Source of the DNA: Candidatus Fervidifonticultor sextus
GTDB taxonomy: Bacteria; Sysuimicrobiota; Sysuimicrobiia; Sysuimicrobiales; Humicultoraceae
Reading direction: 5' to 3'
NCBI GenBank assembly: GCA_031459875.1
Contig: JAVKHQ010000011.1
Coordinates: 1 to 64,000, forward strand
Length of the DNA: 64,000 nt
The position numbers were made by a program. Position 1 is the first letter of the stretch. Each line of letters begins with the position of its first letter. Positions 18,001 through 21,000 of the stretch are shown piece by piece.

Positions 18001-21000
18001 CCGGTGCTGGTGCCGCTGCTGGTCAGTGCCTTCCGGCGCTCGGAGGACCTGGCGCTGGCCATGGAGGCCCGGTGCTACCAGGGCGGGGAGGGCCGCACGC
18101 GGATGAACGAACTGCGCTGGCGCGCCGCCGACGCCGCCGCGGCCATCGTGGTAGCTGCCGCCTCGCTCGCCCTGCTCCGCGTGCGGTAGCGATCCATGCG
18201 CCGCGTGGCCCTCGTCCTGGAGTACGAGGGGACCTCGTACGCCGGGTGGCAGCGGCAGCCGCAGGCCCCCACGGTCCAGGCCGCGGTCGAGGACGCCCTG
18301 GCGCGCCTCGTGCAGGCGCCGTGCCGGGTCGTCGGCTCCGGCCGGACCGACGCCGGCGTGCACGCGCTCGGCCAGGTGGCCCACGCTGACCTCGACACCG
18401 GGTTGTCGGTCCGCCAGATCCGCGACGGGCTGAACGCGCTGCTCCCCCCGGATGTCGCCGTCCGCGCGGTCTGCGACGTCGCGTCGGACTTCCATGCCCG
18501 CCGCGATGCGCGGGGGCGCGTCTACCGGTACCTGATCCTGGCCCGGCCGCACCCTTCGGCCCTGCTGCGCCGCTACGCGCATCACGTGCCCGACCCGCTG
18601 AATCTGTCGGCGATGGCCTCCGCGGCCGCGGCGCTGCTCGGCCGGCACGACTTCGCCGCCTTCCGCATCACCGGGACGCCGACGGCAACCACGATCTGCC
18701 ACGTGCGGGCACTGCGGATCACCTCACGCGGCCCGCTGCTGGTCGTCACGGTGGCCGCCGACCGGTTCCTCCGCCAGATGGTCAGGCGGATGGTCGGGTC
18801 CCTGCTGCTGGTGGGACGCGGCCGCCTGCCGGCAGACGCGATCGCGCCGATCCTGGCGTCGAGGGATCCTCAGCGGGCCGGTCCGGCTGCGCCCGCCTGC
18901 GGCCTGTACCTGGTGCGCGTCGTCTATCCACCGGATCGCCTCCGGGTCGTCCCCGAAGACCCTGTGCTATAATCGTCGCGCGGGCCCGTAGCTCAAGTGG
19001 TAGAGCAGCGCCCTCATAAGGCGCCGGTTCCTGGATCGAAGCCAGGCGGGCCCACCAGCGGTCTGCCTGGCTGGCAAAGTGTGGGGCTGGAGGTGAGGGT
19101 GGTGGACGACCGAGAGCGGACCGGCGTCTTCGAGTTCGGCGAGGTGACCGCCCGGGGCGTGCAGGACATCTTGAGCTACGTGTACCGGCGGTTGGAAGAG
19201 CGGGGTTACAACCCCGTGGATCAGATCGTCGGGTATCTCCTGTCCGGAGATCCCACGTACATCACCAGCCACGGTGATGCGCGCAAGGTCATCCGTCAGG
19301 TGGACCGGTTGGCGCTGATGGAAGAACTGGTCCAGGCCTACGTGGAGACCCGGCTGCGCGCCACCACGCCGTAGCAGCAGACGTCGCAGGCCGGTCAGGA
19401 GGGCTGCGGTGAGCAGGCTCATCATCACAGGCGGCCGCCGCCTGCGCGGGGCGGTCCGGGTCGCCGGAGGGAAGAACAGCTCGCTCGCCGTGATCGCCGC
19501 CGCCGCCCTGGCCGCCGATATTTCCGTCCTCGAGAACGTACCCGACTGCCGGGATGTCGCCACGTTGGTCGCGATCCTCGAAGCCCTCGGCGCCCGCATC
19601 ACCCGGACGGCGGGCCGCCTGACCATCGACGCCCGGACGCTGGTCGGCCACGTGGCGCCCTACGACCTGTGCCGGACCATGCGGGCTTCCTTCTACGCTG
19701 CGGGGGTCCTGCTGGGCCGCATGGGGAAGGCGCAGGTTCCGCTCCCGGGGGGGTGCTCGATCGGCGCGCGGCCGGTGGACTTCCACCTCCGCGGGTTTTC
19801 CACGCTGGGGGCGAAGGTGGTCACCGAGCACGGCTACATGAAGGCCTCCGCGCGGCGGCTGCGGGGCGCGCCGTTCTACGTGCCGCGGAGCAGCGTCGGG
19901 ACCACCATCAACCTCATGATGGCGGCCAGCACAGCCCGCGGCACCACGGTCCTGCAGAACGCCGCCCGCGAGCCCGAGGTGGTGGACTGCGCGGTCTTTC
20001 TCAACCTCATGGGCGCCAGGATCCGGGGAGCCGGCACCGATACCATCACCATCGAAGGCGTGCGCGCCCTCCACGGCCACACCTATACCATCATCCCCGA
20101 CCGGCTGGAAGCGGGGACCTACCTGCTGGCCGGTGCGGCTACCGGCGGCGACGTCCTGGTCGAGGGCATGATCCCCGAACACCTCACGGCGCTGCTGACC
20201 AAGCTCGCGGAAGCCGGCGTGGAGGTTGTCCGCGACACCGACGGCGTCCGGGTGCGGGGCGGAGGCGAGCTCCGGGCCGTGGACATCGACACTGCCCCGT
20301 ATCCCGGTTTCTCGACCGACCTGCACCCCCAGATGGCTGCCCTCCTCACCACGGCGCGCGGGGTCTCCAAGATCCGCGAGACGATCTTCGAAGCCCGGTT
20401 CGCCTACACCGATGAACTCCGGCGCATGGGCGCCGACATCACGGTGGACGGCGATACCGTCCATGTCACCGGTGTCCCGCGCCTGACCGGGGCGCCGGTG
20501 GAAGCGCCGGACATCCGCGGCGGCGCGGCGGTGGTGATCGCGGCCCTGGCAGCCGAAGGCAACACCGAGATCTCCAATCTGGAGAACATCGACCGGGGGT
20601 ACGAGGGGCTGGAGCGCAAGCTGGCGCTGCTGGGCGCCCGTCTGGTCCGGGACGGGGCCGCCGGGGCCCGCGACGTCGGCTAGTCAGTCCCCGGGCGACT
20701 CCATGGCGTCTGCCGGACCGCGACCTCCCAATCCGTCCGGCGAGAGGCCGCCGCTGCGCCAGATGGTGAGCTGGATCTCCAGTGGCGACATGGTCTCGAT
20801 CAGCCGGAGCAGCGCGTCCACCACGGCGGGGTCCAGGGCACTCCCTGCCATCCGCTTGAGCTCGACCTTGGCCTCCTCGAGGGTCTTGCGCGGGCGGTAG
20901 GCGCGGTCGGACAGCATAGCCTCGAAGGCATCCGCCACCCGGATGATGCGCGACCCCAGCGGGATCTCGTGACCGGCCAGGCCGTCGGGATACCCGCTCC

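Follow-up and report, generated by a model that had tools for sequence, protein, structure and literature searches.

Genes and signals at the reoM-murA locus

The DNA analyzed here (the window) is a stretch of 64,000 nt of contig JAVKHQ010000011.1 of Candidatus Fervidifonticultor sextus, a member of the Sysuimicrobiota. The features around its reoM and murA genes are the following.

18196..18972, + strand: truA, upstream context, last gene of a ribosomal/ECF cluster
18963..18973, + strand: extended -10-like element TG-n-TATAAT, read from the sequence, directly 5' of the tRNA
18982..19057, + strand: tRNA, anticodon CAT (Met by ARAGORN)
19089..19094, + strand: Shine-Dalgarno-like GGAGGT, 7 nt ahead of the GTG at 19102 and 4 nt ahead of the GTG at 19099
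19102..19374 (alternative start 19099), + strand: reoM/ireB, 90 aa (91 from 19099)
19397..19402, + strand: Shine-Dalgarno-like AGGAGG between reoM and murA, 6 nt ahead of the murA start
19409..20683, + strand: murA, 424 aa, sole copy in the genome, Cys116 kept
20684..22591, - strand: convergent REC-GGDEF-HD gene, ending flush with the murA stop

The reoM start at 19102 is favored by the Shine-Dalgarno spacing and by the N terminus of relatives, M-D-E-R-E-R-T, and with this start the conserved threonine is residue 7. The initial annotation had placed reoM 35 nt before the only murA; order and single copy were as described, but the distance from reoM stop to murA start is 34 nt. No terminator-like site was found in this gap by sequence scan, and the only one in 18000-21500 lies within murA and is at chance level. 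A scan of the same interval for the sigma-70 -35/-10 consensus returned no promoter-like sites; the extended -10-like element is a candidate that may act as the promoter of tRNA-reoM-murA. A CAT tRNA stood within 400 nt 5' of reoM in 12 of the 39 phylum loci examined. A hairpin spanning the murA start has a folding energy of -14.5 kcal/mol, calculated without a shuffle control, and was left out of the interpretation. We consider reoM and murA to be probably cotranscribed, in a unit that, judging from the gene context, would be closed by the convergent REC-GGDEF-HD gene. Farther along the window, two small genes at 26289-27084 (- strand) adjoin a tRNA-Val; we take them to resemble a Phd-type antitoxin and a PIN-domain toxin.

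The ReoM protein scored 106.5 bits against PF06135 (cutoff, 25) and 109.8 against NF003997 (cutoff, 91), and its closest named relative, from Ca. Fervidifonticultor octavus, is 98-99% identical. Its threonine aligns with Thr7 of Listeria ReoM (6TIF). The phosphorylated threonine had been noted as conserved, with E-x-T-G in 30 of 30 loci, and this holds in the larger set, where the motif around Thr7 takes the form E/D/Q-x-T-G in 54/54 distinct phylum sequences. The same 54 all carry the motifs with Thr7, Asp50 (IreB numbering), Arg62, Arg66 and Arg70. The position of Arg57, by contrast, is Ser in all 54 and also in most clostridial loci; passages of PMC7286690 give this residue as 57% conserved in the IreB/ReoM family and as needed in Listeria. 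In a ReoM tree the phylum was monophyletic (98/86), with no resolved sister group. By these sequence measures, the phylum ReoM is a genuine orthologue and a member of the IreB/ReoM family; dimerization, MurA binding and phosphorylation by the PASTA kinase are predicted. The neighboring MurA scored 511.8 against TIGR01072 (cutoff, 392.7).

Distribution of the gene pair

IreB was detected in 81 of 94 phylum genomes (51 of 54 among those of good quality), in line with the 38 of 41 reported initially, and murA in 79 of 94, at a single locus each (split across two contigs in G054). In all 79 genomes with both genes, reoM lies directly ahead of murA, extending an earlier count of 30 of 30, with stop-to-start gaps of -1 to 69 nt in 39 phylum loci. 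Two genomes stand outside the 79: G022, in which a murA start lies 30 nt 3' of reoM at a contig end (L109), and G042, with only a partial reoM match. The 13 genomes without reoM are also without murA, as assembly gaps would give. These counts take in the unpublished genomes G016 and G024, from which the MurA trees described below hold no row. Outside the phylum, IreB was found in 0 of 37 genomes and in none of 121 genomes from the phylum of a record titled Chloroflexi; among the controls, only B. subtilis and L. lactis were positive, as in the initial annotation.

Sysuimicrobiota (CSP1-3) have been placed in Terrabacteria, beside Armatimonadota (PMC11604079); the words "diderm" and "outer membrane" occur in neither paper on the phylum. 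Omp85 and LpxC were above cutoff in 5/5 Sysuimicrobiota genomes from four families, and the Omp85/BamA protein of the source genome scored under the TIGR03303 BamA cutoff. As judged from genomic markers, the phylum thus appears to be diderm. ReoM in a diderm is not new by itself, being already seen at Sporomusa and Megasphaera loci (L015 and L048).

The pair had initially been seen in this lineage only. The underlying counts, adjacency in 9 of 80 loci and in 0 of the other 71, were reproduced, as was a RuvX-like gene as the usual neighbor elsewhere (within 600 nt 3' in 56/71 loci; the label was assigned from a motif). But the 71 Bacillota loci are mostly clostridial, and diderm Bacillota have the same pair with a MurA of the same clade. 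A MurA search retrieved three Bacillota loci, one titled Hydrogenispora, in which reoM runs right up to the murA start. We then scanned GTDB genome contigs twice for the pattern of a ReoM motif with a MurA motif behind it. The two scans returned 49 and 36 loci, and tblastn confirmed all 85: 34 of Sysuimicrobiota type and 51 others, with gaps of -8 to 55 nt. Exclusivity to the phylum is thus ruled out. Since the scans recovered only 34 of the ∼79 known phylum pairs, other lineages may have been missed.

The 51 outside loci belong mostly to Hydrogenispora/Limnochordia-type lineages. Forty-eight carry Bacillota titles (Hydrogenispora, Capillibacterium, Limnochordia, UBA-numbered Firmicutes, three Lachnospiraceae and others); the remaining three are titled Betaproteobacteria or Bacteroidota, encode Bacillota-like proteins and are probably misassigned contigs. 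Titles at odds with the encoded proteins were seen at L287, L292, L295, L297 and L305, and included Betaproteobacteria, Chitinophagales, Bacteroidota and Aneurinibacillus titles on Limnochordia/Hydrogenispora-like genes, as well as a Sysuimicrobiota-type locus titled Bacillota. Omp85 was present in 5/5 tested pair-bearing Bacillota genomes, and Limnochordia are described as diderm in the relevant part of PMC11456536.

In the Hydrogenispora class, reoM was present in 57 of 58 genomes, beside murA in 31 of these 57 and apart from it in 26. PP2C was found in 25 of 26 sampled genomes of the class; 24 of these 25 have it within 8 kb 5' of a reoM, and 12 of the 25 carry PP2C...reoM-murA as a single cluster. 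At two loci (L433 and L439) the order is rlmN-FHA-PP2C-(rodA-pbpA)-PASTA kinase-rsgA-rpe-cheX-reoM-murA, and at two more (L437 and L438) the same cluster, reoM included, has no murA behind it. Phosphatase, PASTA kinase, reoM and murA share one strand and cluster in L433:2984-10880 and L439:1418-12584, and a CheX-like gene lies immediately 5' of reoM at all four loci. Ten genomes (G124, G128-G133 and G140-G142, of the class of G094) have two reoM copies; one lies ahead of murA in 9/10, and the other is near PP2C in five. A division of labor between a copy in the kinase cluster and a copy before murA is possible. Gene order thus backs the link between ReoM and MurA, up to the clustering of phosphatase, kinase, substrate and target.

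The occurrence of the pair in deep-branching diderm Bacillota as well as in Sysuimicrobiota argues that reoM-murA is an old two-gene unit; within Sysuimicrobiota it would have been inherited vertically. Its conservation might instead be that of a frozen gene order, with ReoM acting mainly on another target. There are precedents for other partners of IreB homologues, such as CpsB for S. suis CcpS (passages of PMC10148854), and the pair adjoins a conserved ribosomal cluster. However, the upstream neighbors vary (truA and the tRNA here, rpe-cheX or others in Bacillota) while the pair persists, duplicate reoM copies travel with murA, and three Lachnospiraceae (L361, L362 and L392) join reoM, at a distance of 20 nt, to an unrelated, divergent MurA (40% identity). 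The last is a long branch elsewhere in the tree and was therefore probably joined to reoM independently. We thus regard frozen order as very unlikely.

By sequence, Sysuimicrobiota thus have, outside Bacillota, a phylum-wide ReoM-MurA unit that they share with diderm Bacillota and that is tied to one MurA clade. This extends the range of ReoM past the Firmicutes stated in the passages of PMC7286690 and PMC10148854. We found no description of the pair, or of ReoM in Sysuimicrobiota, in the open-licence literature.

The MurA clade and the output of ReoM

In a 55-row MurA tree (LG+G4), the reoM-linked MurAs formed one branch (100/100), four rows of which have no reoM in the fetched flank; in it the Sysuimicrobiota sequences (100/100) were sister to a Bacillota set (99/97). 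The Listeria murZ of L393, with no open frame in the record, was left out of this tree, and the partial L295 is in no tree. A 60-row quick tree under a mixture model, with 20 of 80 representatives dropped, concurred (SH-aLRT, 98), and FastTree placed the 47 full-length non-Lachnospiraceae scan matches on the same side (99). AU tests under the simpler LG+G4 model, with a midpoint root and groups named after the first tree had been seen, rejected the grouping of phylum MurA with Listeria/S. aureus MurA (the MurAA clade; p-AU, 2e-52), within the MurZ clade with S. aureus MurZ (p-AU, 3e-6) and with Chloroflexota/Actinomycetota/Bipolaricaulota rows (p-AU, 0.004). Nesting within a Hydrogenispora subgroup was compatible (p-AU, 0.16), and transfer and shared descent are therefore indistinguishable. 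The source MurA scored 517.5 against PRK12830, under the cutoff of 552.

Pair-bearing Bacillota mostly carry two or three MurAs. A third Firmicute paralogue, MurAC, is the main form in Limnochordia according to passages of PMC9600426. Like the reoM-linked clade, it stands apart from MurAA/MurAB and is rich in Limnochordia-type genomes, and on this match by taxa the two may be the same; those passages mention neither reoM linkage nor Sysuimicrobiota, and a second non-AA/non-Z clade in our tree is another MurAC candidate. The linkage ties a little-studied MurA clade to the ReoM/IreB switch. At L019, a MurZ-type gene (L019:2-1264) lies ∼2.7 kb 5' of reoM.

Both an adaptor and an inhibitor role of ReoM/IreB toward MurA appear in the literature. 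Unphosphorylated ReoM of Listeria binds MurA and promotes its degradation by ClpCP, for which ReoY and MurZ are needed; PrpC provides stationary-phase shut-off; and excess MurA titrates ReoM, so that the ratio of the two proteins matters (PMC7286690, PMC8959180, 10.1101/2024.04.02.587704). In other species, E. faecalis IreB inhibits MurAB directly, with Asp50 needed for binding and inhibition (PMC12077105), and C. difficile IreB is phosphorylated under PrkC (PMC9674922). The pneumococcus is without ReoY, and its ClpCP leaves MurA/MurZ levels unaltered (10.1101/2023.03.26.534294), as do mutations of the IreB homologue CcpS in S. suis (PMC10148854).

The initial annotation had called MurA the proteolysis target of ReoM and had left ReoY and MecA unsearched. 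We found neither in profile searches of five phylum genomes (0/5 each); the ReoY search used PF08864, which we take to be the ReoY family, with B. subtilis as a positive control. McsB (0/5) and DivIVA/GpsB (PF05103, 0/5) were likewise missing from five genomes each, and there is no MurZ or second MurA, each phylum genome having one murA. ClpC-like, ClpB-like and ClpP proteins were present in 5/5 genomes. The source protein on contig C24 (818 aa, IGF-type loop) is presumably ClpC by its motifs and gene order, which we read as greA-clpC-radA-PIN/TRAM (L451:1-6500); no ctsR, mcsA or mcsB was seen ahead of clpC in this segment.

The phylum system shares ReoM Thr7, a PASTA kinase, MurA, ClpC and ClpP with the Listeria PrkA/PrpC-ReoM-ReoY-MurZ-ClpCP pathway. 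Unlike Listeria, it has reoM directly ahead of a single murA of another clade, no detected ReoY, MurZ, MecA, McsB or GpsB, PP2C lost in most families, and outer membrane markers. Of the Listeria escape positions, N197 corresponds to Val in the source MurA (to Val or Ile in most clade members) and S262 to Ala, so that the docking surface differs from that of Listeria. A "PEH" helix considered as a signature of ReoM docking also occurs in MurAs without reoM linkage and is not diagnostic.

By the features tested, the phylum unit falls outside the Listeria degradation pathway, and the absence of ReoY, MecA, McsB, GpsB and MurZ from our searches leaves the label of proteolysis target unsupported. 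ReoM could still hand MurA to ClpCP without ReoY, MurZ or MecA, ClpC and ClpP being present in all five genomes and degradation thus possible. The lack of ReoY and MurZ, both required in Listeria, and of MecA/McsB, the position of the phylum MurA outside the MurAA clade and the lack of a ClpCP effect in the ReoY-less pneumococcus make this doubtful, though worth keeping as the second choice. With ReoM, a kinase and one MurA, and neither ReoY nor MurZ, direct inhibition fits best. A mode of action like that of E. faecalis IreK-IreB/MurAB is proposed by analogy, the Asp50 loop and Thr7 being common to both; the phylum target differs in being a sole MurA outside the MurZ/MurAB clade. S. pneumoniae StkP-IreB is similar in lacking ReoY and in being controlled probably at the level of activity, and differs in having two MurAs and GpsB.

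Kinase, phosphatase loss and the proposed switch

The PASTA kinase reported at C64:2-1783 of the source genome was recovered, with a score of 533.7 against NF033483 (cutoff, 450); its catalytic motifs are intact, and its proline-rich tail runs off the contig end. Kinase matches were found in 91 of 94 phylum genomes, 80 of them above cutoff. As described initially, rlmN abuts the kinase in the source genome, the rlmN stop overlapping the kinase ATG.

PP2C_2 was detected in 29 of 94 phylum genomes: 1 weak match in 33 for the source family f1, 4/22 for f3, 22/23 for f4, 1/12 for f5, 0/1 for f6 and 1/1 for f7. The absence first noted in the source family (1 weak in 15) thus holds, and the loss is wider and includes FHA, which was found in 25 of 60 near-complete phylum genomes (2/22 in f1 and 0/12 in f3). 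Searches of the source genome with PF13672, with PF07228 and with a profile built from phylum sequences found no PP2C; a hidden divergent copy was sought with the profile of 8 phylum PP2Cs among 22,982 ORFs and rejected at a best E value of 0.42. The statement that PP2C sits between rlmN and the kinase was borne out in part, but FHA, rodA and pbpA are often there too, and some PP2C matches sit next to non-PASTA kinases, to which that of G093 belongs. The full order rlmN-FHA-PP2C-rodA-pbpA-kinase occurs in G069 and G080, and rlmN-FHA-PP2C-pbpA-kinase in G060, where rodA was not scanned. FHA and rodA are kept without PP2C in G085 and G009, rlmN is followed by the kinase in G039 and G047, and rsmB precedes it in G092. 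The kinase cluster is eroded stepwise across the phylum. Since f5 is deepest in the MurA and ReoM trees and its member G080 keeps the full cluster, the phosphatase was probably lost more than once, with kinase and Thr7 retained.

Four metallophosphoesterases of the source genome are possible substitute phosphatases. One of them, at C28:9222 (L440:1501-2229), matches 3RQZ with an E value of 3.5e-55 and a Ser/Thr phosphatase model weakly (36.4 against 326), and is a candidate substitute for the missing PP2C.

Where PP2C and FHA are lost, ReoM might have become a fixed, phosphorylation-independent partner of MurA, as chaperone, stabilizer or constant damper. Besides the scarcity of both genes in f1, the strict 1:1 linkage would suit an obligate subunit, and GpsB, an activator of the kinase in Listeria, was not found in five genomes. 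Yet all 54 sequences retain Thr7 together with the motif around it, and 91 of the 94 genomes retain the kinase with its catalytic motifs intact; a fixed partner is thus quite unlikely.

We propose that reoM-murA is a two-gene control unit at the first committed step of peptidoglycan synthesis. A single transcript would yield ReoM and MurA in fixed ratio; an unphosphorylated ReoM dimer would bind MurA through its Asp50 loop and hold its activity down; and the PASTA kinase, by phosphorylating Thr7, would release MurA at times when the cell wall requires material. The output would most likely be direct inhibition, as for E. faecalis IreB on MurAB, rather than ReoY/MurZ-dependent degradation by ClpCP. 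Where PP2C is lost, an unrelated phosphatase could reset the switch, or the operon itself could do so by supplying newly made, unphosphorylated ReoM. That ReoM restrains the phylum MurA under kinase control is, from sequence comparison, very probable; once direct inhibition is included as the means, we judge the chances of the whole proposal to be evenly balanced. In its favor are the invariant linkage (79/79) and the invariant Thr7, Asp50, Arg62, Arg66 and Arg70, together with the PP2C-reoM-murA clusters of the Hydrogenispora class and the placement of one of two reoM copies ahead of murA (9/10). Against it stand the Ser at position 57, the Val and Ala at the N197 and S262 positions, a MurA outside the MurZ clade and the separation of reoM from murA in 26 of 57 Hydrogenispora-class genomes; direct inhibition in particular is known only for MurAB, and ClpC and ClpP were present wherever sought.

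A broader reading is that reoM-murA is an ancestral, minimal PASTA-kinase wall switch, diderm-rooted and older than ReoY/MurZ proteolysis, which most Sysuimicrobiota run without a dedicated phosphatase and reset with co-made unphosphorylated ReoM. We consider this unlikely as a whole; if true, the kinase would license every newly made batch of MurA, in one direction only. These thermophile-rich lineages offer a natural minimal system of one kinase, one ReoM and one MurA that could be reconstituted.

Two further observations concern the kinase cluster. In G009, a RodA-PbpA fusion of 902 aa (L162:4258-6963) lies ahead of the PASTA kinase. The phylum PP2Cs, where kept, end in a hydrophobic segment and a C-terminal tail (L115-L122), an arrangement that we take to recall actinobacterial PstP.
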